Origin: a virus
Lineage: Duplodnaviria; Heunggongvirae; Uroviricota; Caudoviricetes
Length of the DNA: 64,000 nucleotides
Virus record (IMG/VR): IMGVR_UViG_2778261505_000002
Strand: one strand, 5' to 3'
Part shown: positions 3,539-64,000 of the stretch, in pieces
Layout: every line of letters begins with the position of its first letter
Position numbering within the stretch: position 1 is the stretch's first letter
Made by a program: the position numbers and the translations under genes
The notes under the pieces: model-generated
Told to the model about the DNA's origin: nothing
Databases searched by the model: none
What the model saw: the letters and a program-made list of their open reading frames with translations, nothing else

Positions 3539-4879
3539 ATGACCGAACTTTGCCATACAGGACGCGGGCTGTCCGAAGAATTTGATGAAGATTTCCAGAA
3601 CAGACTGACGGCATATTTTTGTCGTGATCACGAGTTTCTTACTCGTGCGGGAGATCTGGTTGTGCCTAGCCAGTTTGCCAATGCGGCCAATGCCATATTG
3701 GTTAATATGGTTTCGGGCTATTACCGTATGTACAAGAGCGCGCCCTCTTCATCTGCAATTCTGGATATGCTTAAGCGTGCGAAACGCGATAAGACTATCC
3801 GTGAGGAACTATTCGCCGATGTTGTTGCTGCGTTTAAGCGCATCCTTGCAGAAAAATTGTCCGATACCTCGTACATGGTTGACCAGGTATCAACCTTCGC
3901 AAAAAGTGTAGCGTTTGATGATGCTCTGATTAAGGCTGCTGAACTGAAAGAGAAAGGCGACTTTCAGGGGGCGATGGCAATCATGGCCAAGGTTCAGCAG
4001 ATTGGATCGAACGAAGCGACCGGAATCTATGACTACTACACCTCCGCAAGTGAGCGATTGAAAGCGCGTGAATATGAGGCTTCAGAGGAGTATGTACCAA
4101 ACAGTATTACAACTGGACTCCCTCTTCTCGATAGGTTGCTGTACCAAAAAGGCTGGGCAAAGCGCGAAATGGTGCTCTTCATGGGGTTCGCTAAATCCGG
4201 TAAATCGACCGCAATGGGGGAGTTTTCCATAAACGCAACACTTGCTGGCTACAATGTTCTGTATCTCTCGCTGGAGGTTCACACCACCATTTTATCCGAC
4301 CGTTTTGATGCAAGATTGTCGGAGACGGAAATGTCCAAGTTGGTGGAACGGCGCGATGAAGTTCATCGTAAGTTGGCAGAGTTGGGAGCCTCTAAGGGGA
4401 TTGGTAGTTTGTGGGTTGTTGAGCGTCCGTCAGGAAGTATGTCACCGGCAGATCTGGACCGTATGCTTAACAGTATGAAAGCCAATGGCATGGTGCCTGA
4501 CATGGTTGTTGTCGACTACGCAGATTTGATGCGTGCCAGTTATGACCTTCGTGATGATCGCGCCAACATTCGTAGTATCTACACCGATTTACGTGCTCTT
4601 TATGACAAGCATAACGTTGCTGGGATCACGGCATCGCAGACAAACCGTGAAGGTGGCGCGTCAGAAGTTGCCACAATGATGCACGCTGCCGACAACATCG
4701 AAAAAGTACGTATTGCTGACCTGGTAATAACGATCAACAAAACCGAAGAAGAAGAAGCGAAAGGAGAGGCTCGTCTCTACTTTGCTGGTTCACGTAACCA
4801 GCAGGGAGGGATCAGCATTCGCGTTAAACAAAACCTCGAACAAATGCGCTTCATTGAGCGAATCTTAGACGTTACCTAA
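3539..4879 (+). CDS. DnaB-like replicative DNA helicase
   Basis: 446 aa; RecA-fold core with Walker A GFAKSGKST and Walker B-like VVVDYADLM; conserved upstream AAAGGAAAGCACATG start context. Confidence 0.8.
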   Translation: MTELCHTGRGLSEEFDEDFQNRLTAYFCRDHEFLTRAGDLVVPSQFANAANAILVNMVSGYYRMYKSAPSSSAILDMLKRAKRDKTIREELFADVVAAFKRILAEKLSDTSYMVDQVSTFAKSVAFDDALIKAAELKEKGDFQGAMAIMAKVQQIGSNEATGIYDYYTSASERLKAREYEASEEYVPNSITTGLPLLDRLLYQKGWAKREMVLFMGFAKSGKSTAMGEFSINATLAGYNVLYLSLEVHTTILSDRFDARLSETEMSKLVERRDEVHRKLAELGASKGIGSLWVVERPSGSMSPADLDRMLNSMKANGMVPDMVVVDYADLMRASYDLRDDRANIRSIYTDLRALYDKHNVAGITASQTNREGGASEVATMMHAADNIEKVRIADLVITINKTEEEEAKGEARLYFAGSRNQQGGISIRVKQNLEQMRFIERILDVT

Positions 4880-27304: not shown

Positions 27305-28077
27305 TGCTTTACGCACGAAGCATAGAGGTTAAGAAGATGAAAAGAAAAATTGAAGAACCAAAAACGACCCTTAATAAACATGGGGAAAAAATTCAAACAC
27401 ACCCAGCGTTCGGTCTTGTGAAAACAAGCCGTGTTAGCACGACTGGCATTCGTCTATTTGATTCAGAACTGGAACATAGAGACTATATTGAAATAGGCGT
27501 TTACGAGGCTGAACTATCCTTGGATAATGAACGAACCCGGCCACAAAGGAGTAGCAATAGACGGCCTTTAGTTGAAATTAGACTTAGCCAGGCACAATGG
27601 GCTGCTATGGTTAGCAGTTTTGGTGTGGGCGAAGGTGTGCCATGCACTATTTCATATAAAACCATTGGCGACTCAATTAGAGTTCATGATATTGCCGAGC
27701 AAAAAAGTATTCGACAAAAATTCAACGATCAAATAAAGGCAGCTACGAATAGTGAGATTGATCGACTTAATCAGCAAGTATCAGAGCTAGGTGAGCTTGT
27801 GAAAAAAGGAAGAGCTGGAAAACGTGACCTTGAAGAACTATATAGAAAACTTGCATCTGCTGTAGCTAACCTTCCTGAAAATCTGTGCTTTGCTACCGAA
27901 TTAATGCAGGAGCAAATGGATGAAATTGTCTCATCTGGAAAGGCGGAGATTGAGGCGTATGTTGCAGGCACTGTTATGCGTAAAGGGTTAGCAGCATTAG
28001 GCACAGAATCATGCATTAACGATGCTCCTACTGTCTCTATCACCAAAATGGAAAGCGGTAAAGAATTACTGCCATAA
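27304..28077 (+). CDS. Hypothetical coiled-coil protein (start may be ATG 27337)
   Basis: 257-aa ORF; GAGG RBS precedes ATG 27337. Confidence 0.45.
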   Translation: MLYARSIEVKKMKRKIEEPKTTLNKHGEKIQTHPAFGLVKTSRVSTTGIRLFDSELEHRDYIEIGVYEAELSLDNERTRPQRSSNRRPLVEIRLSQAQWAAMVSSFGVGEGVPCTISYKTIGDSIRVHDIAEQKSIRQKFNDQIKAATNSEIDRLNQQVSELGELVKKGRAGKRDLEELYRKLASAVANLPENLCFATELMQEQMDEIVSSGKAEIEAYVAGTVMRKGLAALGTESCINDAPTVSITKMESGKELLP

Positions 28078-28097
28078 ATGTATCTGAGGTACTGACA

Positions 28098-28487
28098 ATG
28101 CTTTTAATTCAACCTGGGTTCGGTTTAAAGATAAAAAAAGGACATATGTTCGGTTTCAAAGAATCGAAACGAAAAATTCTGTCCATTAGATTGCCGTTTA
28201 TCACCATTCATTGGTTAAACAGAGAGTCAACCGATTATTGGTATAAATGTGCTCTGGCCGCATTTAACGACCCTGACTGGTTTATAGAAAACCACCATGC
28301 TGTTCGTCAGGCAAAGAGAAAAGCTAATACGACATACATGAAGGCGTATCGGAAGGCATGGAAAGAACACCGCGATCGATACCAAAAAGACATGGAGAAA
28401 CTTGAATTGGAAAATATGGATCTAAGAAGGAAGCTCGGTGAAGCACGGCGAGATATTGAAGCATATAAACGTCTTGTATCGGAGTGA
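28098..28487 (+). CDS. Hypothetical protein
   Basis: 129-aa ORF with GAGG RBS; basic coiled-coil C-terminus. Confidence 0.45.
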   Translation: MLLIQPGFGLKIKKGHMFGFKESKRKILSIRLPFITIHWLNRESTDYWYKCALAAFNDPDWFIENHHAVRQAKRKANTTYMKAYRKAWKEHRDRYQKDMEKLELENMDLRRKLGEARRDIEAYKRLVSE

Positions 28488-28489
28488 AT

Positions 28490-28624
28490 ATGACTTTACA
28501 TTGTTTTTTCAAAGGGCATTGCTTTTCACTATACAGAAACAGAAATAATAATGGGGCATTCTACATATGTAGTAAATGTGGGAGGACAAAATATCTTCCA
28601 GATGTCAAATTTGAAGGTCCTTGA
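28490..28624 (+). CDS. Small zinc-ribbon-like protein (44 aa, not in ORF track)
   Basis: HCFFKGHC...YICSKCG Cys pattern; ATG follows previous stop by 2 nt. Confidence 0.3.
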   Translation: MTLHCFFKGHCFSLYRNRNNNGAFYICSKCGRTKYLPDVKFEGP

Positions 28625-28650
28625 ATGTTTGCATTAAATGGGCAATACAG

Positions 28651-29067
28651 ATGATCACAACAGACTTTTCTAAATTAAGTGATTTTGAAATTAACAGACG
28701 AGTATGTGAGGCTTTAGATATGGAGGAGTATTTCTTCATACCTGATGACGAAGCAGATTTCGATTCGGAGATCCCCACTGACGAAAGAGGTCCTGTTTGG
28801 CAGACGTCAAAAAGGGATATTAATGGCTTCCGTGCTTCAAACGGAAATTGCTTCAATCCTTGCAACAACCCGGCGGACGCAAAGCCCATTATCGTAGAGA
28901 ACAGAATTGGCATTATTCCTGCGCCAGAAAATGGATTATGGAAGGCAGCGCATAGAAAGATTGGTAACGATAATACTCCATACCATATGACTCAAAATGT
29001 AAATCCACTCCGCGCCGCCATGATTGTCTTTCTGATGATGAAAGAAAGTGAGAGTTGTACCGATTAA
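28651..29067 (+). CDS. Hypothetical protein
   Basis: Track ORF 28621..29067 starts at TTG; first ATG at 28651. Confidence 0.45.
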   Translation: MITTDFSKLSDFEINRRVCEALDMEEYFFIPDDEADFDSEIPTDERGPVWQTSKRDINGFRASNGNCFNPCNNPADAKPIIVENRIGIIPAPENGLWKAAHRKIGNDNTPYHMTQNVNPLRAAMIVFLMMKESESCTD

Positions 29068-29366
29068 TGAATATATACGATTTTTTTAAAAAACCTAACA
29101 CATGTGTCAGAAAAGGGTATAAACCGTCAGTCATCGATTGCTGGTCGCTATCAGCAAATAATCTCAACAATGTATTCAAAATGCATTGGGAGTTTCTTTG
29201 TGAAGCGCGCGGCGTTCTCGACATGACAGTCAGAGAAGCAATTATCTGGATTCTTTGGTTTCCGGTAAGAACATTTATGACTCTGACGTACCCATTTACC
29301 TTCTGGATTTGGGGAACCGTCCTTTATTTCATATTAAAAGGAGAAGTAAAACATGGCAGCAATTAA
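29067..29366 (+). CDS. Hypothetical membrane protein
   Basis: Track ORF 29055..29366 (TTG); ATG at 29067 overlaps previous stop; hydrophobic Trp/Phe-rich C-terminus. Confidence 0.4.
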   Translation: MNIYDFFKKPNTCVRKGYKPSVIDCWSLSANNLNNVFKMHWEFLCEARGVLDMTVREAIIWILWFPVRTFMTLTYPFTFWIWGTVLYFILKGEVKHGSN

Positions 29367-29778
29367 GAAACTCTACGATGCCGCAAACGCGGCTCTGGAT
29401 GTTATTGATGATGAAGTATCAAAAGGCTTTCCTGAACCTGATTGGGCGCATCAGCTACGAAACGCTATCGCCGAAATGAATCCACCAGATCCGACCACCG
29501 ACGAGACAGACTGGCAGCGATTTATCCGTATGTACGCTCAGGAAATAGGTCCAACGCCAACGGCAGAGCAAGCAATGCTGCTGAAATACTTCAAAGAGGC
29601 GGGAGAGGATTTACCAATTGATGACTCAGCATATTGGTTCCACTGCGCATGGCGTAAGTATGACGTGATATTCACACAAGGCATGGGAAGCAAAGATATG
29701 GTTGTGTGGCATCTACTCCATATAGACACAGCCGTTGACAGAGTTATTGAACAGTTTTTCCCTAACCAAGAAGATTGA
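29353..29778 (+). CDS. Hypothetical protein
   Basis: 141-aa ORF with AAGGAGAAG RBS. Confidence 0.45.
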   Translation: MAAIKKLYDAANAALDVIDDEVSKGFPEPDWAHQLRNAIAEMNPPDPTTDETDWQRFIRMYAQEIGPTPTAEQAMLLKYFKEAGEDLPIDDSAYWFHCAWRKYDVIFTQGMGSKDMVVWHLLHIDTAVDRVIEQFFPNQED

Positions 29779-29833
29779 TCGCCTATTCATAACTAACAAA
29801 ATAAGTAAACACTAACCACAAAAGGAAAAACAC

Positions 29834-30109
29834 ATGAGAGTTTTAGTTCGAATCGTTACCAGCACTGTCTATGACGTGTTTCCGCTTTTTATGGTCAAAG
29901 TCGATGGCCTTAACGATGAAGAAACTGACGCGCTGATCCAGCGTACTCTTGTTGAATATACAGGTCATGACGCTGATTCAGTGATGGTTGATGATGATGG
30001 TGTTTGTTGGCATAACGGCAACTGTTGGTACGTAGAAGAGACTCAACAAATCAGTAATGAAGATGCTGAACATCTTGAGCGTATTTTAAGCATCAGCACT
30101 TTTGAGTGA
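29834..30109 (+). CDS. Hypothetical protein
   Basis: 91-aa ORF with AAAGGAAAAACACATG start context. Confidence 0.45.
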   Translation: MRVLVRIVTSTVYDVFPLFMVKVDGLNDEETDALIQRTLVEYTGHDADSVMVDDDGVCWHNGNCWYVEETQQISNEDAEHLERILSISTFE

Positions 30110-30148
30110 GTTTACAGTAAAGTTTATATAAGTTAGTATCTACCTATC

Positions 30149-30328
30149 ATGAAGATTTTTATTGAATACTTGTTACTCATCGTTTCAATAGCTTTTGTCA
30201 TCGACTGCATTTTCACTGGTGTCATTCGTAAAGTCTTTTCCCCGGTGCACGACGTAGTCATAAACGCTTTGGCTATCGTGCTCGTATTTAATTCAGCATT
30301 TGATGTAATCAAAGAGGTGGCAGCATGA
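30149..30328 (+). CDS. Small membrane protein (59 aa, not in ORF track; weak)
   Basis: Hydrophobic ORF MKIFIEYLLLIVSIAFVIDCIF; no clear RBS; start abuts a palindromic-motif copy. Confidence 0.3.
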   Translation: MKIFIEYLLLIVSIAFVIDCIFTGVIRKVFSPVHDVVINALAIVLVFNSAFDVIKEVAA

Positions 30329-30660
30329 AGACCATCCCATTCGCGCTGTTGTTTCTTTCTTCGATCGTTGTGGCCGACACCACTGTTTATCAGTGTGAAA
30401 TGTCTGTAGCCGACGTTAAGAATGGCACTCTTACCGACGTCATAAAAGCACCATATGGAGCGATGGTCGTAGACAGCGGCGACCAGTTCTATGTTGTGCG
30501 TGACGATCGAGTGTTGTCATCCCCATATCTCACAAATCGTAATGGCAAATTAACCGGCGTCGGAGAAGACCACTTCGTATACAACAAATACAAGGGCTTC
30601 TATGGCGTTCACGCTTCTCAGCAAAGCTACCTTTTCGATGACTGCAAGGAGGTTGGGTAA
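30325..30660 (+). CDS. Secreted/periplasmic hypothetical protein
   Basis: 111 aa; N-terminal signal-peptide-like MKTIPFALLFLSSIVVA. Confidence 0.45.
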   Translation: MKTIPFALLFLSSIVVADTTVYQCEMSVADVKNGTLTDVIKAPYGAMVVDSGDQFYVVRDDRVLSSPYLTNRNGKLTGVGEDHFVYNKYKGFYGVHASQQSYLFDDCKEVG

Positions 30661-30872
30661 TGGCATTAACACTGGCAGGTCTGGAAATCGAGAAAACAAG
30701 CGGCTACTGGCGTGCTAAGGGTTTCAAGCAGCCTGGCATTCTTGAGCGTCTGGAACGTGAAGATGGGTATATCGTCCACCAGCGGCGTGAATGGCGTATG
30801 TACGATCCAGAAACAGGAAAACTGACTACAAAAGCCGGAACACTTTGGGGTCTGTTAAAGAAAATACACTAA
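30660..30872 (+). CDS. Hypothetical protein
   Basis: 70-aa ORF, start overlaps previous stop. Confidence 0.4.
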   Translation: MALTLAGLEIEKTSGYWRAKGFKQPGILERLEREDGYIVHQRREWRMYDPETGKLTTKAGTLWGLLKKIH

Positions 30873-30918
30873 ATGCAAACTGACTGCGGAACGTGCCGCA
30901 GTCATATTTCATAGTCGT

Positions 30919-31452
30919 CACCGCTGACAGCATACACAATCAACTACCGCTGATAGCATATCGAGAGTCTATCTCACCGCTCACAGCATACATTACTCGA
31001 TTTTTTACCGCTGACAGCATACTTAAGAAATTGCATGAATAATGTGTCCCGGTATGGGTATAACCAGAACAAAATTACCGCTGGCAGCATACGAATGTCT
31101 GACATATACCATTAATTACCGCTGATAGCATATCCAAACAAAAATTCCTCAATAAAACACCGCTGACAGCATACATTCTATCAGAGAGTAGCAGGCAATA
31201 AATGCCTTTCACTACAAGCAATCAGCGCAATAGCAATAGAATGTTAGTGAGCGCAAACCTATATGGAATGCACTCTTCGAGGTTAGTAACCACTGGGGAG
31301 GTATGACAGAGCATTGAGTGGTGATAGATGATTTACCGCTCACAGCATACGTTCATCTCACTATACCGCTGGTAGCATATCTTTAACCGTTCACAGCATA
31401 CTTTTCAGAAAAATAGCCGCTGATAGCATACATTTCACCGCTGACAGCATAT
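30919..31452. repeat. Iteron array (about 12 copies of ~17-bp repeat ACCGCTGACAGCATAC) downstream of repA
   Basis: Copies counted by eye with minor variants (CTGATAGCATAT, CTCACAGCATAC, CTGGCAGCATAC); irregular spacing with a ~150-bp gap between copies 7 and 8. Confidence 0.8.
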
Positions 31453-32546
31453 CAAAGCAGTTTGAGACTATTGGAAAGGATCTCAATCATCTTGATATTT
31501 TCAGGCGTCAAATTCTGCGAAAGTTCGGTTATCTTGTTGATAATGTTCTGTTTGGCATCAATTTCCCCAGCTTTCTCATCTGGTTTTTTGGGTTCGATGT
31601 CTTCAGGTTTTGGCGGTGCGACTTTGAGTTTTGGATTGCGGCTGTGAATCTGGATATAGATCGACCGCCCACGCTTAATCTCGCTGTATTCGAGATAGCC
31701 CAAATCTTGGAGAGCTTTTAAGCCGTTACGTATAGTCTGATTCTGCGAGCTGACATTCCTGCTACTCAAATTGAGTCGCGCACGCAATCGAGCAAGCGAT
31801 ACCGGCGCAGGCTTGGTTGGAAGACTTTCGATGAAGGTGTACAGAGCCTGTGCTGTTTCTTTGCGTGGTAGCTTATTGATAACCTTTAACTGCAAAAGAA
31901 CCTTATGGTCAAAGCGATATAGTTCGGCCAGCTTCGGTTCTGCATAGAACACCACCGTATCTTTCTGCTCGTTGTAGTCCACGCTATTGATGAGGTGCAC
32001 CATCAGAAGCGAGATCTTGTTAGAGCCGTCGACGTTCTTTTCTTCATACGTTCTCTGGAAAGACAGAGTTGTACGCATGATCTTCAAAAGACTGTTTGTA
32101 AGCCGGTCGCGGAGTGTTTTGCGGATCTGTGACGATGGATAGCCACAAAACTTAGCAAATTTCGTGATACTTAACTCGACACGACCGTTAGGTTCGCCGT
32201 ATTCTGCCAGCGAACGCACAACGCCCACCCACGTTTTGAAATCATGATCCATGTCGAGACGAGGACCGGTTATCTTGATATCGGAATAGCCTTCAGAACG
32301 GGCTACTTCGAGCTGGACAAGCTCCTTTGAAGCATCGATCTCATTTGGCTTGTTACGTTTACTGTATTTTGTTCCCTTAAGCGTGGGGACGAACAACCCC
32401 AGTCGCATCAACGCAATTGGTTGGACTGTATTGTTGCTATTAGGGACAAGTTCCCCTGTGTACAATTCAAGGGAACCTTCTTCAAAGTTGTCGATGTTAT
32501 CTTCTACTTCTTTGTTATTTTTACCTTTTTTATTTTTTGTGGACAT
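31452..32546 (-). CDS. repA: Iteron-binding replication initiator RepA
   Basis: 364 aa from Met at 32546 (track ORF extends into the upstream iterons); NSNNTVQPIALMRLGLFVP and IKITGPRLDMDHDFKTW segments match what I recall of P1/RepFIB-type RepA; flanked by iteron arrays. Confidence 0.8.
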   Translation of the reverse strand: MSTKNKKGKNNKEVEDNIDNFEEGSLELYTGELVPNSNNTVQPIALMRLGLFVPTLKGTKYSKRNKPNEIDASKELVQLEVARSEGYSDIKITGPRLDMDHDFKTWVGVVRSLAEYGEPNGRVELSITKFAKFCGYPSSQIRKTLRDRLTNSLLKIMRTTLSFQRTYEEKNVDGSNKISLLMVHLINSVDYNEQKDTVVFYAEPKLAELYRFDHKVLLQLKVINKLPRKETAQALYTFIESLPTKPAPVSLARLRARLNLSSRNVSSQNQTIRNGLKALQDLGYLEYSEIKRGRSIYIQIHSRNPKLKVAPPKPEDIEPKKPDEKAGEIDAKQNIINKITELSQNLTPENIKMIEILSNSLKLL

Positions 32547-32565
32547 GTGGACACCTTTGTCATTC

Positions 32566-32668
32566 AACCGCTGACAGCATACTTGATTTGCCGCTGACAG
32601 AATACCAAAAACAGTTGGCAGCATACGGTGAACCGCTGACAGACTATCAATTACCGCTGACAGCATAC
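32566..32668. repeat. Origin-side iterons (5 copies) upstream of repA
   Basis: Same CCGCTGACAGCATAC repeat family, five copies within ~100 bp immediately 5' of repA. Confidence 0.75.
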
Positions 32669-32708
32669 ATGAACATGACTTCAGACCAGTCGTGGCGCGG
32701 CTTACAGC

Positions 32709-32781
32709 GATCGGGGATCTTATTTGATCTATATAAGGATCTATCTATGGATCTCTTTATTAGGATCTATCCTGTGGATAT
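32709..32781. other. Candidate replication origin: GATC cluster plus DnaA-box-like site
   Basis: Six GATC sites within 59 bp (32709-32767) and TGTGGATAT at 32773-32781 (8/9 to DnaA box), adjacent to origin-side iterons. Confidence 0.5.
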
Positions 32782-32867
32782 GTGAATAATTAAAACAGGC
32801 ATTTACTACCTTCGGCGCACCTGGTGGGTTATCGTTGCCTCGGCTAACAATCACAGAAAAATGACAT

Positions 32868-33512
32868 ATGGATCTAAAACGCACGCGCTGGGTTCGTCGT
32901 CTTGAAGACGGCTCCTACACTATCGAATCAAATTCCAACCTGAATAAGCAGAAGTTGCTTTGTGACATCTGCGGTATAGCGGCGAAGTGCCCGATCTACG
33001 AAACCAGAATTAAACTTGATAAGGCTGGTGTGAATTTTCATTTAAACAGTTGCATCAGGTACGTTCCATTACTCGCATTTCGTAAACCGATCATCGGATT
33101 GGATGCCCCCTACTTCAACACACTCCGTTCAGGTGTGACGTGGCGAGATCGTTTATCACCAGACAAGCTGATTTGCCTCGTATCCGCAGACACAGGGAAA
33201 ATCATCCGTTTTGGGAAAGTAGACAAGGTTTACTCAGGCCCAGTAGACGAAATGTTGCGGAAACACAGCCGGTTTAATCATCTCTGTATGGGTGGTGAGA
33301 AAATCGAGAAGGTAGAAGAAGTGATCCGCAAATCCTACGGACACTTTCTGACCAAAGATAGCCTGCTCACCGCAATCTACATCAGACATGTAAAACGTGA
33401 GTTCGACCTCGAATACCACAGCGAAGAAGAGCTTAACCTTGTTGACCCACGTCCAAAAGCTGGCGTCATAAGCATAAACGCAGCGCGTAAAAAGCCCACT
33501 GACGCGCTGTAA
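32868..33512 (+). CDS. Hypothetical protein
   Basis: 214-aa ORF; Cys pairs near N-terminus (CDICGIAAKCP). Confidence 0.45.
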   Translation: MDLKRTRWVRRLEDGSYTIESNSNLNKQKLLCDICGIAAKCPIYETRIKLDKAGVNFHLNSCIRYVPLLAFRKPIIGLDAPYFNTLRSGVTWRDRLSPDKLICLVSADTGKIIRFGKVDKVYSGPVDEMLRKHSRFNHLCMGGEKIEKVEEVIRKSYGHFLTKDSLLTAIYIRHVKREFDLEYHSEEELNLVDPRPKAGVISINAARKKPTDAL

Positions 33513-35085: not shown

Positions 35086-36998
35086 AGTTTTTAAAGCTCC
35101 AGGTTGAGAATTTTATGGCTATCGCCAGCGCGGAGGTCGAGTTAGATCAGCGTGGTTTAGTGCTCATTCAGGGTGTTAATAGTGATGATAGTTCCGCATC
35201 AAGTAATGGCTCTGGAAAGTCAACGCTAATGAATAGCCTGATGTGGTGTCTTTATGGCGAAACAGCTCATGGTGTGAAGGGTGACGATGTGTTGTCTACC
35301 GACCATGAAAAGAACTGTCGTGTTGCAGTAACCATCGAGGATGAAGGCAAGAGATATGCGATCATTCGTCACCGTAAACACAAAGAGTTCAAAAATCGGC
35401 TTATCGTTCGTGGTGAAGACGGCGATATGACGAAAGGCAAAGATGCGCTGACGCAAGAGTTCGTCGAGCGTCTGATCGGTGCATCTAAAGAGGTTTTCAT
35501 GGCTTCCATCTATGCGAGCCAAGAAGCTATGCCAGATTTACCTGGAATGTCCGACAAAAACCTCAAAACCATCGTAGAAGAAGCCGCTGGCGTTGACAGA
35601 CTGACACGCGCCTACGCTATTGCTCGTGAGCGAGCTAATGCAGCTGCCGCACGTATGGATGTGGTTAAAACCAAATTGGAGTCGACAATCTCGACCATTG
35701 AGGCAACACAGTCAGAAATTGAGTCAGCGAAAGCCTCCTCTGAATCATGGGAGCAAGAGCGTTCTAAACGTTATGACGATGCCCTGGCTGGGCTGGCCAG
35801 TGCCGAAGTTGAGTTAACGGAAGTTGAACTTGAGATCCGCACTCTTCCCGAACAGATCCGTGATACCGAGAAGGCAATCGAAAGTGAGCGCAAAAAGTTA
35901 GCCTCAAAAGAAGAACATGACGCCAAGTTGCTCAAAGTTCGTGGTGCGATAACTGATATTCGGGCAAGCATCAAAGCTACAGAAAATAGTCAGGCTGATG
36001 CAATGAGCCGCGCGCGTAATTTTAAGACCAAAGCAGAAGAGGTTGGTACTAAAGTGGGATCACCATGCCCTACTTGTGGCAAAGCCTACTGCGAAGAAGA
36101 TCTATCAACGGTGAAGGAGAATTTCATTGAACAAGCACGTCAGGAAATTGGTCAGGCGAAGACACTTGCAGAGGCAATGGCTAAACACAAAACGAATCTT
36201 GAGAAAGCGTTAAGCATTGAGTCTGCCCTTGTTAAAACGACACCTGATGTAACGGCTATCATTGCCCGGATTGAAGAGCTTACGAAACAACTCTCATCTT
36301 TGCGTCATCGTGAGAAGGAGGTTGTTGCTATTGAGTCTCTTGTGACTCGTGCTCGTACTGAGGTCGATCGTATATCAAAAGAGATTAATCCGTTTATTGC
36401 TCTTATCGCCAGACACGAAGATAACCTGGTATCCAGTAAGTCTACCTTCAAGTCCTTAAAAGATGAGTTGAAGGCTATTCAGGAACAAACGTTGCTATTG
36501 GAAAAAGCTCGTCAGGTCTACTCTCCTGCCGGGGTGCGTTCTCATATTTTGACGTCTGTTACGCCTTTCCTGAATACACGCACTGCCGAGTACCTCAATA
36601 CGTTGTCTGACGGGAATATTACTGCTGAGTGGTCGACGATGGATGTCACCAAAAAAGGTGAGTATCGCGACAAATTCAACATTAGTGTGCAGAAGAAAGG
36701 TTCAAGTAAGTCGTTCCAGACCCTCTCTGGTGGTGAGAAGCGGAAGGTTCGCATTGCGTGTTCTTTGGCATTGCAGGATCTGGTTAGTAACCGGGCGAGT
36801 AAAAACATCGATTTGTTTATCGGCGACGAAATTGACGATGCACTCGATACAGCCGGTCTTGAACGCCTCATGGGTATTCTGGAGTCCAAAGCTCGCGAGC
36901 GAGGTACTGTGCTGATTATCTCCCATAAAGAGATGAAGTCATGGTTCCGGGAAACTATTACGCTGGAAGTTAAAGAGGGGCGCAGCTATGTCGTTTAA
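35082..36998 (+). CDS. SbcC/Rad50-family ATPase
   Basis: 638 aa; Walker A GSGKST, central coiled coil with zinc-hook CPTCG, signature LSGGEKRKV, Walker B LFIGDEIDDALD. Confidence 0.8.
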   Translation: MKFLKLQVENFMAIASAEVELDQRGLVLIQGVNSDDSSASSNGSGKSTLMNSLMWCLYGETAHGVKGDDVLSTDHEKNCRVAVTIEDEGKRYAIIRHRKHKEFKNRLIVRGEDGDMTKGKDALTQEFVERLIGASKEVFMASIYASQEAMPDLPGMSDKNLKTIVEEAAGVDRLTRAYAIARERANAAAARMDVVKTKLESTISTIEATQSEIESAKASSESWEQERSKRYDDALAGLASAEVELTEVELEIRTLPEQIRDTEKAIESERKKLASKEEHDAKLLKVRGAITDIRASIKATENSQADAMSRARNFKTKAEEVGTKVGSPCPTCGKAYCEEDLSTVKENFIEQARQEIGQAKTLAEAMAKHKTNLEKALSIESALVKTTPDVTAIIARIEELTKQLSSLRHREKEVVAIESLVTRARTEVDRISKEINPFIALIARHEDNLVSSKSTFKSLKDELKAIQEQTLLLEKARQVYSPAGVRSHILTSVTPFLNTRTAEYLNTLSDGNITAEWSTMDVTKKGEYRDKFNISVQKKGSSKSFQTLSGGEKRKVRIACSLALQDLVSNRASKNIDLFIGDEIDDALDTAGLERLMGILESKARERGTVLIISHKEMKSWFRETITLEVKEGRSYVV

Positions 36999-47901: not shown

Positions 47902-48495
47902 ATGATTGCAGCCGAAAAAATCAAACAGCGAAAGCGCGACAACTCTCTTCGTGACCTCTGGAGAACACCTGACTGGCTGTTTTCTGCCATTCAACGTTAT
48001 CTTGGAGTGACATTTGATGTTGACGTTGCCTGCAACAAGGACAATGCAAAGCTGCCTAATTTCATAGGCGTTGAGCGTGATGCTTTGAAATCTGAATGGG
48101 GACAGCCAGGTACAATTGCCTTCCTCAATCCACCCTACTCCAAAATCTACCCCTGGATTGATGCGGCTATACGTGAGCAGGCTCGCGGAGTTACAACAGT
48201 GATGCTAATTCCTCAATCCCTAGATACAAAGTGGTATGAGCGTGCAACAGAGTGTGCGAATGAGACGATTATTCTGTCTGGTGGCCGCGTAGCGTTTGTC
48301 GAGCCTGACGTAAATCTGGGGCAGGTAGAAGTAAACATCAACCCAGGTGGCAGTATGCTCGTTGTTTTTCGAGGATTCTGTCAGGACGCTGGGCACTCTA
48401 TAAGCAAGATCCCTTTGGACGTCATGAAAAGTCTGGGAGGGTATGATCCTGCGAATGTGATCAGGAAAAAAAGACCATCAAAGAAGGCTGCTTAG
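47902..48495 (+). CDS. DNA N6-adenine methyltransferase (phage Dam-like, orphan)
   Basis: 197 aa; WRTPDWLF N-terminal motif and catalytic NPPYS; no adjacent restriction endonuclease gene. Confidence 0.75.
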   Translation: MIAAEKIKQRKRDNSLRDLWRTPDWLFSAIQRYLGVTFDVDVACNKDNAKLPNFIGVERDALKSEWGQPGTIAFLNPPYSKIYPWIDAAIREQARGVTTVMLIPQSLDTKWYERATECANETIILSGGRVAFVEPDVNLGQVEVNINPGGSMLVVFRGFCQDAGHSISKIPLDVMKSLGGYDPANVIRKKRPSKKAA

Positions 48496-61684: not shown

Positions 61685-62785
61685 TCACACTGCGCGGAAT
61701 GCGATTTCGCCAGGTATTACTTCACCTTGCCAATACATTTGGGCAGCAACGCGATCTGCGAGGTCACGATAAATAGCTGTAAATTCGCTATCTGGACGAC
61801 TAATAACGGTTGGTGTTCCGTTATCCAGATCTTCACGAAGAGAGATATGAAGTGGCATTTGGCCTAACAACTGCGTGTTGTATTTCTCGGCCAGTTTCTG
61901 TGCGCCACCGGTGCCAAAAATTGGCTCGTGATGACCGCAGTTACTGCAAATATGCACACTCATGTTTTCAACGATACCCAGTACCGGCACTTCGACTTTT
62001 TCGAACATCACAATGCCTTTCTTCGCATCGATCAGCGCGATGTCTTGCGGCGTAGTTACCACAACCGCACCAGTTACAGGAATGTTCTGCGCCAGCGTCA
62101 ACTGAATATCACCAGTGCCCGGCGGCATATCGAGAACAAGATAGTCCAGATCAGGCCACAATGTTTCCTGCAACATCTGCATCAGCGCCTTGCTGGCCAT
62201 CGGTCCACGCCACACCATTGCATTGTCGTCGGTGACCAGATAACCAATAGAGTTGGTTGCCAGGCCATGAGACATGATAGGTGCCATGTGAGTACCGTCA
62301 GGTGAGGTTGGACGTTGGTTTTCCGCGCCCAGCATGGTTGGAATTGATGGACCATAGATATCGGCATCCAAAATACCAACTTTCGCACCTTCAGCAGCCA
62401 ACGCCAGTGCCAGGTTTACCGCCGTGGAGGATTTACCCACGCCGCCCTTGCCTGAGCTGACGGCGATAATGTTCTTAACGCCATTAATGCCTGGTTGGTT
62501 TTTGACGCGCTTAAGCGTGGCAATGTTGTACGACAGCTTCCAGTCAATAGCCTTTGCGCCAGTGATACGGAGCAGATCACCACTACATTGCTCTTTCAGG
62601 TCTTCAAAAGGCTTATTCCACACGAAAGGCATGATTAGTTCGACATGCAGTGTGTCATCCATCAACGCAACATGGTGTAACGCTTTAAGCGTAGTCAGGT
62701 TGTGTTTCAGGGTTGGGTGCTGAAAATTAGCCAGCGTACCGGCTACCATTGCTCTCAGGGCATCCGGCGATTTGGACTCGCTCAT
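61685..62785 (-). CDS. apbC: Fe-S cluster carrier ATPase ApbC/Mrp
   Basis: 366 aa; near-identical to enterobacterial Mrp/ApbC as I recall it (P-loop SGKGGVGKSS, CxxC); divergent from metG as in enterobacterial chromosomes. Confidence 0.9.
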   Translation of the reverse strand: MSESKSPDALRAMVAGTLANFQHPTLKHNLTTLKALHHVALMDDTLHVELIMPFVWNKPFEDLKEQCSGDLLRITGAKAIDWKLSYNIATLKRVKNQPGINGVKNIIAVSSGKGGVGKSSTAVNLALALAAEGAKVGILDADIYGPSIPTMLGAENQRPTSPDGTHMAPIMSHGLATNSIGYLVTDDNAMVWRGPMASKALMQMLQETLWPDLDYLVLDMPPGTGDIQLTLAQNIPVTGAVVVTTPQDIALIDAKKGIVMFEKVEVPVLGIVENMSVHICSNCGHHEPIFGTGGAQKLAEKYNTQLLGQMPLHISLREDLDNGTPTVISRPDSEFTAIYRDLADRVAAQMYWQGEVIPGEIAFRAV

Positions 62786-62942
62786 CCCGTCTCCTTTATT
62801 TTAATTTGCGCAATTGTCGCCTTGTAGTGTACTCCAGCTACGACATTTAATCATTTATGAGAAATGCTGTTATCACATGGCAGACATAAGGCCATTTTGT
62901 TACTATCAAGCCCCTTTTCACTACAAAGAAGTAATGCCTACT

Positions 62943-64000
62943 ATGACCCAAGTCGCGAAGAAAATTCTGGTGACGTGCGCGCTGCCGTACGCTAACGGCT
63001 CAATCCACCTCGGCCATATGCTGGAGCACATCCAGGCTGATGTCTGGGTTCGTTACCAGCGAATGCGCGGCCACGAGGTTAATTTCATCTGTGCCGACGA
63101 TGCCCACGGTACGCCAATCATGCTGAAAGCACAGCAGCTTGGTATCACACCGGAACAGATGATTGGCGAAATGAGTCAGGAACATCAGACTGATTTCGCA
63201 GGCTTTAACATCAGCTATGACAACTATCACTCGACGCACAGCGAAGAGAACCGTCAGTTGTCCGAGCTTATCTATACTCGCCTGAAAGAGAACGGTTTTA
63301 TTAAAAACCGCACCATCTCTCAGCTGTACGACCCGGAAAAAGGCATGTTCCTGCCGGACCGTTTTGTAAAAGGTACATGCCCGAAATGTAAAGCGCCGGA
63401 TCAATACGGCGATAACTGTGAAGTCTGCGGCGCGACATACAGCCCGACGGAACTGATCGAGCCGAAATCAGTGGTTTCTGGCGCTACACCGGTAATGCGT
63501 GATTCCGAACACTTCTTCTTTGATCTGCCTTCTTTCAGCGAAATGTTGCAGGCATGGACCCGCAGCGGTGCGTTGCAGGAGCAGGTGGCAAACAAAATGC
63601 AGGAGTGGTTTGAATCTGGCCTGCAACAGTGGGATATCTCCCGTGACGCACCTTACTTCGGTTTTGAAATCCCGAACGCACCGGGCAAATACTTCTACGT
63701 CTGGCTGGACGCGCCGATTGGCTACATGGGTTCTTTCAAGAATCTGTGCGACAAACGCGGCGACACTACCAGCTTCGACGAATACTGGAAGAAAGACTCC
63801 ACCGCCGAGCTGTACCACTTCATCGGCAAAGATATCGTTTACTTCCACAGCCTGTTCTGGCCTGCCATGCTGGAAGGCAGCAACTTCCGCAAGCCGACCA
63901 ACCTGTTTGTTCACGGCTATGTGACGGTGAACGGCGCGAAGATGTCCAAGTCTCGCGGCACCTTTATTAAAGCCAGCACCTGGCTGAATCATTTTGACGC
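62943..64000 (+). CDS. metG: Methionyl-tRNA synthetase, 5' partial (runs off window end)
   Basis: Translation from ATG 62943 gives [29 protein letters not shown] with HLGH motif and zinc knuckle CPKC...CEVCG; open to window end; absent from the ORF track because it has no stop. Confidence 0.9.

Follow-up and report, generated by a model that had tools for sequence, protein, structure and literature searches.

Clinical E. coli, Shigella, Klebsiella and Salmonella commonly harbour SSU5-like phage-plasmids, some of which carry ESBL genes. Their replicons encode either of two lineages of the initiator protein RepA. One is that of SSU5, pHCM2, pMT1 and Cyrano. Published members of the other include pECOH89 and p09EL50, whose RepA proteins have been reported to be identical (PMC3999498), and the IncpKPHS1 phage-plasmids, which were described as having four downstream iterons only and no known RepA domain (PMC6735626).

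Two further replicons provide the natural comparison. The first is that of phage P1 (IncY), for which the reference record NC_005856 carries annotations of the DnaA site, the Dam sites, incC, PrepA and incA. The second is RepFIB, found in the IncF plasmids P307, F and pO157 (IncFIB), in which a DnaA box, a GATC cluster and five origin iterons lie upstream of repA and a longer set of control iterons lies downstream (PMC11983097). This downstream block is able by itself to displace a resident FIB replicon (PMC11983097), an effect that fits handcuffing.

Identity and layout of the replicon

The window analysed here, a 64-kb stretch of viral DNA (64,000 nucleotides), is 99.6-99.8% identical at the nucleotide level to known SSU5-like phage-plasmids such as p09EL50 and its relatives. 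Judged from its sequence, the region 30919-32785 is the plasmid-type replication unit carried by an SSU5-like phage-plasmid of E. coli and a relative of the P1 and RepFIB replicons, with a RepA of the same lineage as those of pECOH89, p09EL50 and the IncpKPHS1 phage-plasmids. It is a member of a known family that is already in use for plasmid typing and whose fine structure had been described only in part, and it is ordinary except for a small conserved inverted repeat within the predicted copy-control region. Read along the minus strand, two DnaA boxes are followed by six GATC sites, a GC-rich spacer, five iterons, repA and a further twelve iterons, these last divided into five and seven by a gap:

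32773..32789, minus strand: two abutting DnaA boxes at the outer edge of the origin, reading TTATTCACA and ATATCCACA on the minus strand
32709..32767, minus strand: six GATC sites, five in (A/T)AGATC(C/A) heptamer-like repeats and the sixth as GATCG, in a stretch of 66% A+T
32686..32701, minus strand: GC-rich spacer GCCGCGCCACGACTGG separating the GATC cluster from the iterons
32567..32667, minus strand: five origin iterons, equivalent to P1 incC; 15-bp cores spaced 21/21/21/23 bp start to start
32538..32554, minus strand: two weak DnaA-box-like repeats in GTGTCCACATGTCCACA, with 2 mismatches each, overlapping the repA start codon
31452..32546, minus strand: repA, 364 aa, predicted iteron-binding initiator of the P1/RepFIB family
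31335..31451, minus strand: proximal control iterons, 5 copies, spacing 21/30/21/30
31246..31294, no strand assigned: 49-bp dyad consisting of AGTGGTTACTAACCT, 19 bp and AGGTTTGCGCTCACT, with the half-site AGTG-N6-AACCY
30920..31173, minus strand: distal control iterons, 7 copies, spacing 41/41/70/31/30/26, oriented like the origin iterons
30881..30904, no strand assigned: terminator-like GC-rich hairpin with T-runs on both strands

A preliminary description of this DNA had equated the succession of DnaA-box-like site, GATC cluster, iterons, repA and iteron array with the oriR-incC-repA-incA organisation, and the arrangement does match the P1 annotation feature by feature. The layout of five origin iterons, five proximal iterons, dyad and seven distal iterons is the same in roughly 25 of those E. 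coli-type viral contigs in which the region is complete. The visible exceptions are two contigs in which one origin iteron falls below the match threshold and phage PhiR41_1, where an 87-bp deletion has removed three distal iterons and left four. Relatives from Cronobacter, Klebsiella and Rosenbergiella retain the layout with RepA proteins 78-89% identical and synonymous sites saturated. The layout is also shared by pKPHS1, the RepA of which is 85.8% identical and which has, by our count, five upstream and nine downstream iterons together with the dyad. The published description of IncpKPHS1 can thus be extended by more iterons, the dyad and a clear relationship to P1 and RepFIB. A scan of genome contigs with RepA found two loci only.

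The replicon occupies the same backbone position as that of the SSU5 lineage, between a 214-aa ORF and small convergent ORFs. The hairpin at its distal end is likely to be a two-way terminator that closes the replicon against these convergent ORFs; in P1, by contrast, incA is followed by parA-parB-parS. In p09EL50 the annotation shows no partition genes for about 6 kb to each side, and an Rfam scan of 30600-33000 with E values up to 1 found no RNA families.

The RepA protein

The repA ORF spans 31452-32666. The ATG at 32546, which is preceded by AAAGGTG and is the start annotated in PhiR41_1, is the likely initiation codon, and its use corrects current gene models, in which the RepA start falls inside the origin iterons. 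A resemblance of RepA to the P1 and RepFIB initiators had been suggested for the N-terminus, and is substantiated by BLASTP against P1 RepA (46% identity over 278 aa, E = 3e-86) and by tblastn against P1, P7 and RepFIB (E = 1e-55 to 1e-83). RepA is about 50% identical to the RepFIB RepA, which is found on thousands of plasmids. These alignments identify RepA as a true homologue of the P1/P7 and RepFIB RepA proteins.

The Pfam Rep3_N winged-helix domain (WH1) is recognised above its cut-off (E = 3.9e-9). Rep3_C (WH2) is sub-threshold (E = 0.13) but lies at the expected place, residues 251-296, and that of P1 RepA also falls just under the cut-off. Searches with RepA of PDB sequences and of the NCBIfam models gave no match. 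Compared with the P1 protein, RepA carries 11 additional residues ahead of the conserved core at its N-terminus and, at the C-terminus, a tail of 55 aa (residues 310-364) that is absent from P1 RepA. Like the tail of the RepFIB protein, it consists of a Pro/Glu-rich linker and then a short helix at the very end, though its sequence is different.

The origin core

P1 oriR can be aligned column by column with the origin core, which runs from the DnaA boxes to the GC-rich spacer, and 85 of 111 nucleotides (77%) are identical; the tandem DnaA boxes at the edge, the AGATCC heptamers, the GATCG and the spacer sequence GCCGCGCCACGnCTGG are common to the two. The DnaA-box-like site first noticed at 32773 is present (TGTGGATAT, 32773-32781) and is abutted by a second box (TGTGAATAA, 32781-32789). 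The pair aligns with the annotated tandem DnaA site of P1 oriR and is kept in the Cronobacter, Klebsiella and Rosenbergiella relatives. Recounting again gave six GATC sites in 59 bp (starts at 32709, 32716, 32726, 32738, 32750 and 32764). This is the densest GATC cluster of the window, the runner-up having three sites, and a count of six was never reached in 200 first-order Markov simulations of the window. Position for position, the sites are homologous to the Dam sites annotated in P1 oriR, of which there are five; the additional one is an AGATCC where P1 has AGGTCC. The stretch is presumed to be a Dam/SeqA-controlled unwinding region. The GC-rich spacer is nearly identical in P1 (GCCGCGCCACGTCTGG) and in every relative of the clade. 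A P1-type origin, with its DnaA boxes, Dam-site heptamers and five iterons, is common to unrelated phage-plasmid backbones at the nucleotide level, a result that is biologically expected.

The SSU5 lineage, with a RepA 48% identical to the one described here, also has a P1-like origin core, but there the core occurs twice in tandem, the repA-adjacent copy without three of the GATC sites, and the iterons are of a CCACTRTAG type, the distal ones mostly inverted. At the inner end of the origin, the weak repeats in GTGTCCACATGTCCACA may form an inner DnaA site, since relatives have better boxes at this position, for example GTATCCACA and TTGTCCACA. The conservation at 32538..32554 could equally be explained by translation signals.

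Origin and control iterons

A minus-strand scan for the iteron core TATGCTGTCAGCGGT, allowing up to 3 mismatches, found 17 copies within 30920-32667, all in one orientation, and 3 weak copies elsewhere in the 64 kb, where chance would give 1.7 for the whole window. The scan recovers the five iterons expected before repA. As in P1, they are phased at 21 bp and lie directly before the gene, the last core ending 20 nt from the ATG, and in the alignment they are in register with the incC iterons. The likeness to P1 does not extend to the iteron sequence, which is (G/A)TATGCTGTCAGCGGT here and GATGTGTGCTGGAGGGAAA, the sequence recognised by P1 RepA, in P1, with only 47 of 125 columns of the iteron region identical. 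The iterons of RepFIB also differ in sequence from those described here.

The repA promoter is presumed, from the arrangement in P1, to lie within the origin iterons. A sigma-70 consensus scan of the repA strand within the iterons found no match at 9 or more of 12 positions; the best hexamers by eye, TTGGTA-18-AAGTAT, align in position with PrepA of P1.

Downstream of repA, where about twelve control-type iterons had been proposed, exactly twelve are present (30920-31451), with spacings of 21, 30, 21, 30, 176, 41, 41, 70, 31, 30 and 26 bp. The preliminary description had the array overlapping the 3' end of repA, but it abuts the gene instead: its first core starts at the nucleotide that directly follows the TGA stop, as in P1, and the spacings are, again as in P1, near whole helical turns. 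All twelve iterons are direct repeats, whereas P1 has nine, three direct and six inverted (orientation read from the P1 sequence), and those of RepFIB are mostly inverted. A role for this second array in copy control and incompatibility is predicted from these systems.

The gap in the control array and the 49-bp dyad

The control array is split, unlike that of P1, by an iteron-free gap of 161 bp (31174-31334). Such a gap had been noted before, as 150 bp at 31175-31332, and called unexplained; its presence stands with slightly different limits, and it contains a conserved 49-bp dyad. The two arms of the dyad are conserved and its variable centre is of fixed length, 19 bp. The only AGTG-N6-AACCY half-sites in the 64 kb are the two in the dyad. 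Of 80 viral contigs matching the pattern, 63 have a dyad of 15-19-15 geometry next to a RepA homologue. The dyad is present also in pKPHS1, SSU5 and pMT1, and blastn with the gap as query found it in this replicon clade only (127 plasmids); it was not found in P1 or in the RepFIB example examined. In SSU5 and pMT1 it is unchanged although the iterons differ and RepA is only 48% identical. Because it is constant in lineages with diverged iterons and RepA, the dyad most likely binds some factor other than iteron-bound RepA.

Several other identities for the dyad were considered and set aside. Its restriction to the replicon clade, and the occurrence of the half-site nowhere else in the window, speak against a mobile or widely used module. 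Compared by eye with the consensus sequences, it fits none of Tus Ter, P1 parS, Xer/dif-cer, a DnaA box or an IHF site. RNA folding of the gap gives z = -3.0 for the repA strand and -1.9 for the opposite strand, but the dyad is not read as an RNA, since its arms share a half-site rather than compensate for one another and its centre is not conserved. A 43-aa ORF in the gap (31212-31343), with a GTG start inside an iteron, was rejected because the centre of the region is unconserved among relatives. An apparent inversion of the SSU5 dyad relative to repA was likewise discounted: the near symmetry of the element, together with the divergence of the spacers, makes it impossible to assign an orientation.

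Proposed working of the replicon

The inventory of genes and sites, the homology to P1 and the conservation come from the sequence, and the working steps are drawn by homology with P1 and RepFIB. On this basis the unit is very probably the working plasmid-state replicon of an SSU5-like phage-plasmid, operating in the manner of P1 oriR-repA-incA or of RepFIB. RepA monomers would bind the five phased origin iterons and host DnaA would bind the tandem boxes at the outer edge; together they would open the A+T-rich GATC heptamer region for loading of the host helicase. The GATC sites would make initiation dependent on adenine methylation, and after firing the hemimethylated origin would be open to sequestration by SeqA. 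As a member of the P1/RepFIB family, the replicon would also be expected to need the DnaK/DnaJ/GrpE chaperones. A Dam-family methyltransferase gene is carried by the element itself, at 47902-48495. RepA is expected to repress its own promoter inside the origin iterons. The twelve downstream iterons would keep copy number low by titration of RepA and by handcuffing with the origin iterons, in cis and between copies, and would also set incompatibility. Since its iteron sequence differs from those of P1 and of SSU5/pMT1, the lineage should be a separate incompatibility type.

Alternative explanations

Genes for DnaE, a DnaB-like helicase and a primase-like protein are also present on the element, so that part of its replication may be independent of this unit. 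With so many replication proteins of its own, it could conceivably be maintained from another origin that uses them, the repA unit having become silent or decayed; the FIB replicon of plasmid F, which is poorly active (PMC11983097), offers a precedent. We regard this as highly improbable. The repA gene is intact and under strong purifying selection (pN 0.07-0.13 against pS 0.7-0.9, with synonymous sites saturated), different genera have conserved the iterons, the GATC cluster and the DnaA boxes, and nearly all of the E. coli-type contigs examined show one fixed layout. The types that PLSDB lists for the p09EL50, pKPHS1 and pMT1 records, a single rep cluster or IncFIB, would point the same way if they refer to this repA.

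Granted a working replicon, the distal block of dyad and seven iterons (30920-31294) might still stand outside copy control, for example as a barrier to replication forks, as a second origin or as a site for segregation or pairing. It is set apart by the conserved non-iteron element, and distal iteron number varies among lineages (7, 5, 0-2, or 8-9 mostly inverted), PhiR41_1 having only four. Such a role is nevertheless unlikely. The distal repeats match the iteron closely, with at most one mismatch, and the block lacks both a DnaA box and a GATC cluster. Compared by eye, the dyad is unlike the consensus Ter, parS and Xer sites, and in RepFIB, too, the downstream control iterons form two groups, with about 110 bp free of iterons between them. 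Within a copy-control region, the dyad could instead be a second kind of RepA site with a strong negative effect. Inverted-repeat operators are bound by Rep dimers in F, pSC101 and pPS10, and Vibrio cholerae chromosome 2 has 39-mers, bound by RctB, that are unrelated to the iterons and located among them (PMC6090056). The position of the dyad in the control region, with iterons on both sides, and its two conserved arms around a centre fixed at 19 bp invite this parallel. We consider it doubtful, since the half-site has no clear sub-motif in common with the iteron of this lineage, the same dyad persists in SSU5/pMT1 despite the divergence of RepA and iterons, and P1 and the RepFIB example examined have no such element. 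It is a comparably tentative proposal that the dyad is an unrecognised control element of SSU5-group phage-plasmid replicons, which might dock a host or backbone protein or provide iteron-independent RepA binding of the RctB 39-mer kind. If so, it could couple copy control to phage state, for example through release of handcuffing on induction.

Uses of the map

The precise map of the replicon defines a testable minimal replicon and marks out the downstream iterons as a rational target for curing the plasmid, which has been demonstrated with RepFIB. It is also a starting point for predictions of incompatibility between the group's two RepA lineages. The uniformly direct orientation of the control iterons may mean that the geometry of looping differs from that in P1.

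Organization of the replicon

The preliminary description placed a P1-type replicon, in the order oriR-incC-repA-incA, at 30919-32785. The observation is real and that interpretation is right; the origin core aligns column for column with the annotated P1 region. The features concerned are listed here.

Features of the replicon and related sequences (window positions)
30881-30904, terminator-like hairpin
30920-31451, minus strand, twelve control iterons, five and seven on either side of a gap
31174-31334, iteron-free gap in the control array
31246-31294, 49-bp dyad within the gap
31452-32666, minus strand, long repA reading frame, 404 aa
32547-32666, minus strand, early-start extension of the RepA coding sequence in RefSeq/GenBank models (201-320 in the pKPHS1 record, L094)
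32567-32667, minus strand, five origin iterons
32709-32767, six GATC sites in 59 bp
32773-32789, two abutting DnaA boxes
32868-33512, plus strand, 214-aa reading frame
47902-48495, plus strand, Dam-family methyltransferase gene

A search of the whole window with the iteron core TATGCTGTCAGCGGT (minus strand, up to three mismatches) gives 17 matches within 30920-32667, all in one orientation, and only three weak ones elsewhere; 1.7 would be expected over the whole window. Five lie upstream of repA, spaced 21/21/21/23 bp, and twelve downstream, in agreement with the five and about twelve first noted. The long downstream array is also there, with its gap, but it does not overlap the 3' end of repA as had been thought: its first core begins at the base that follows the TGA codon. 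The DnaA-box-like site seen at 32773 is one of the two abutting boxes, and the reported six GATC sites form the densest such cluster of the window, matched in 0 of 200 simulated sequences. The GATC-rich region is 66% A+T.

The P1 reference annotation gives a DnaA site, five Dam sites, incC iterons 10-14, PrepA, repA and incA iterons 1-9. From the DnaA boxes via the AGATCC heptamers and GATCG to the spacer GCCGCGCCACGnCTGG, 85 of 111 positions are identical to P1, whereas the iterons, although in the same register, are of different sequence (47/125 identical). Thus, the origin core, which host proteins would be expected to recognise, is conserved, and the initiator-specific repeats have changed. 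P1, with its five GATC sites, shows a degenerate AGGTCC at the position of the sixth AGATCC of the window. The P1 incA iterons, as read from the sequence, are three direct and six inverted, whilst all twelve in the window are direct. Unlike in P1, no partition operon comes after the array; its place is taken by the terminator-like hairpin and convergent small ORFs. The loop of this hairpin is CACGTT (minus strand) in the window and the reverse complement, AACGTG, in phage PhiR41_1; the palindrome appears to have been flipped as a whole between the two.

The initiator and its gene

The iteron sequence reads ATG CTG TCA GCG GT, so that the long repA frame opens within the first origin iteron. 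The true start is likely to be the ATG at 32546, after AAAGGTG, giving a product of 364 aa; the PhiR41_1 annotation has this shorter RepA. RefSeq/GenBank models begin RepA 40 codons early, at the ATG in the first origin iteron (ATGCTGTCAGCGGT reads MLSAV), and the five origin iterons are therefore concealed in a coding sequence.

The resemblance to P1 and RepFIB RepA, first noted for the N-terminus, is borne out by BLASTP (46% identity to P1 RepA over 278 residues, E = 3e-86) and by tblastn, which matches P1, P7 and P1-like phages as well as thousands of RepFIB plasmids at ~50% identity. Pfam gives Rep3_N above threshold and Rep3_C below threshold but at the right place, a pattern shared by P1 RepA. 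Unlike P1 RepA, the protein carries a C-terminal tail of 55 residues, in which a linker rich in Pro, Glu and Lys leads to a conserved, helix-like end (IDAKQNxxNKIxELSQNLTPENIKxIEIL); RepFIB and SSU5 RepA have the same kind of tail with other sequence. Comparison with the Cronobacter, Klebsiella and Rosenbergiella relatives described below shows saturation at synonymous sites (pS 0.7-0.9) whilst pN is 0.07-0.13; strong purifying selection thus acts on RepA, and constraint on the conserved non-coding blocks.

Homology with P1 and RepFIB suggests how the replicon may work. RepA and DnaA would initiate at the origin iterons, opening the GATC-rich region, and re-initiation would be controlled by GATC methylation and sequestration of the hemimethylated origin. 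RepA may repress its own promoter, and the downstream iterons would limit copy number via titration and handcuffing; in RepFIB, the downstream block is enough by itself to displace a resident replicon (PMC11983097). The element also encodes a phage-type Dam-family N6-adenine methyltransferase (PF05869, E = 2.9e-38; TIGR01712) which, if it methylates GATC, could serve the origin cluster independently of host Dam.

Relatives and known plasmids

The 2.8 kb around the replicon is 99.6-99.8% identical to many ~110-kb non-mobilizable E. coli and Shigella plasmids, among them p09EL50 of E. coli O104:H4, and 98.8% identical to PhiR41_1. These are SSU5-like phage-plasmids. The window repA is, we take it, the PlasmidFinder target 'IncFIB(H89-PhagePlasmid)'. 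The RepA proteins of pECOH89 and p09EL50 are reported to be identical, and the pECOH89 protein to share 48% identity with that of pLF82 (PMC3999498); typing tools class SSU5-group rep genes as IncFIB (2025 preprint). The plasmids are already known, as are repA and its use in typing; an incomplete literature search found no paper describing, for the SSU5-type group, either the dyad or a P1-like origin core. The replicon is a new, well-resolved iteron replicon of the P1/RepFIB family from a phage-plasmid lineage that had already been sequenced and typed, and not a new kind of system.

For Klebsiella relatives an IncpKPHS1 group has been defined, described as having four iterons 3' of repA and a RepA without recognisable domain (PMC6735626). 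In pKPHS1 itself, whose RepA shares 85.8% identity with that of the window, we find the dyad, nine iterons downstream of repA and five at the origin, the latter concealed within an annotated ORF that is too long. The same layout recurs in Cronobacter, Klebsiella and Rosenbergiella relatives (RepA identity 78-89%), with tandem DnaA boxes, 5-6 GATC sites, a downstream array beginning at the repA stop codon and usually five origin iterons at 21-bp spacing, three or four being detectable in the most diverged. Control iterons number 12, 11, 9, 6 or 4 by lineage. Within the E. coli type, the layout of five origin iterons and a control array of five, the dyad and seven is the same in ~25 of the viral contigs spanning the whole region; two contigs have only four origin iterons at the three-mismatch threshold. 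Among the E. coli-type relatives seen, PhiR41_1 alone differs in control iteron number: it lacks 87 bp holding three of the distal control iterons (window 30935-31021; ~4400-4520 in its GenBank record, L002), apparently by deletion between repeats.

SSU5 (L004, 1770-2400) and pMT1 of Yersinia pestis CO92 (L093, 39820-40450) have two tandem origin cores upstream of repA, against one in the window. In the outer core, a DnaA box accompanies six intact GATC sites at the window spacing and five iterons at 21-bp intervals; the inner core, adjoining repA, has six iterons and three GATC sites that have degenerated to GAACC or GACCC. Homology with SSU5 restarts exactly at the GATC cluster, which is thus where the RepA/iteron swap between lineages has its boundary. 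The 214-aa ORF divergent from the origin is conserved in place in SSU5, pMT1 and every relative examined; it has no match in Pfam or NCBIfam and is an ASCH-domain protein by the annotation of phage Cyrano. The phage-plasmid also bears annotated host-like housekeeping genes, metG (methionine-tRNA ligase) and apbC, which adjoin an S24 peptidase (LexA/CI-like) gene and lie at window ~61900-64000, placed by correspondence with p09EL50 28005-31296.

A conserved dyad in the control array

The split of the downstream array is not in itself unusual: in a RepFIB example the downstream repeats, named E-K (PMC11983097), also form two groups, with an iteron-free gap of ~110 bp. The sole unexplained part of the replicon is the dyad. 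The gap is mostly unconserved except for this 49-bp core, AGTGGTTACTAACCT, 19 bp and AGGTTTGCGCTCACT, which comprises two inverted half-sites AGTG-N6-AACCY; no further half-site occurs in the window. The sequence CCGGTTACTAACCAG (36780-36794) carries the GGTTAnTAACC palindrome of the left arm and does not match the full half-site.

Among viral contigs the dyad pattern occurs at 80 loci. In 64 it is exactly 49 bp long with a 19-bp centre, and all of these belong to the SSU5-type phage-plasmid replicon group, 63 encoding a RepA homologue nearby within the available stretch. The other 16 have other lengths and no RepA, and their count is that expected by chance. The dyad is absent from P1 and from the one RepFIB example examined, and it matched no known site type. 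Binding by RepA in the manner of an iteron is an unlikely explanation, because the dyad stays constant between lineages with different iterons. At least four sequence variants exist, with conserved arms and variable centres, one being that of the SSU5 lineage, which has a RepA of only 48% identity and iterons of the CCACTRTAG type. pMT1 has the dyad as well. In every case the dyad lies inside the downstream array or at the end of it.
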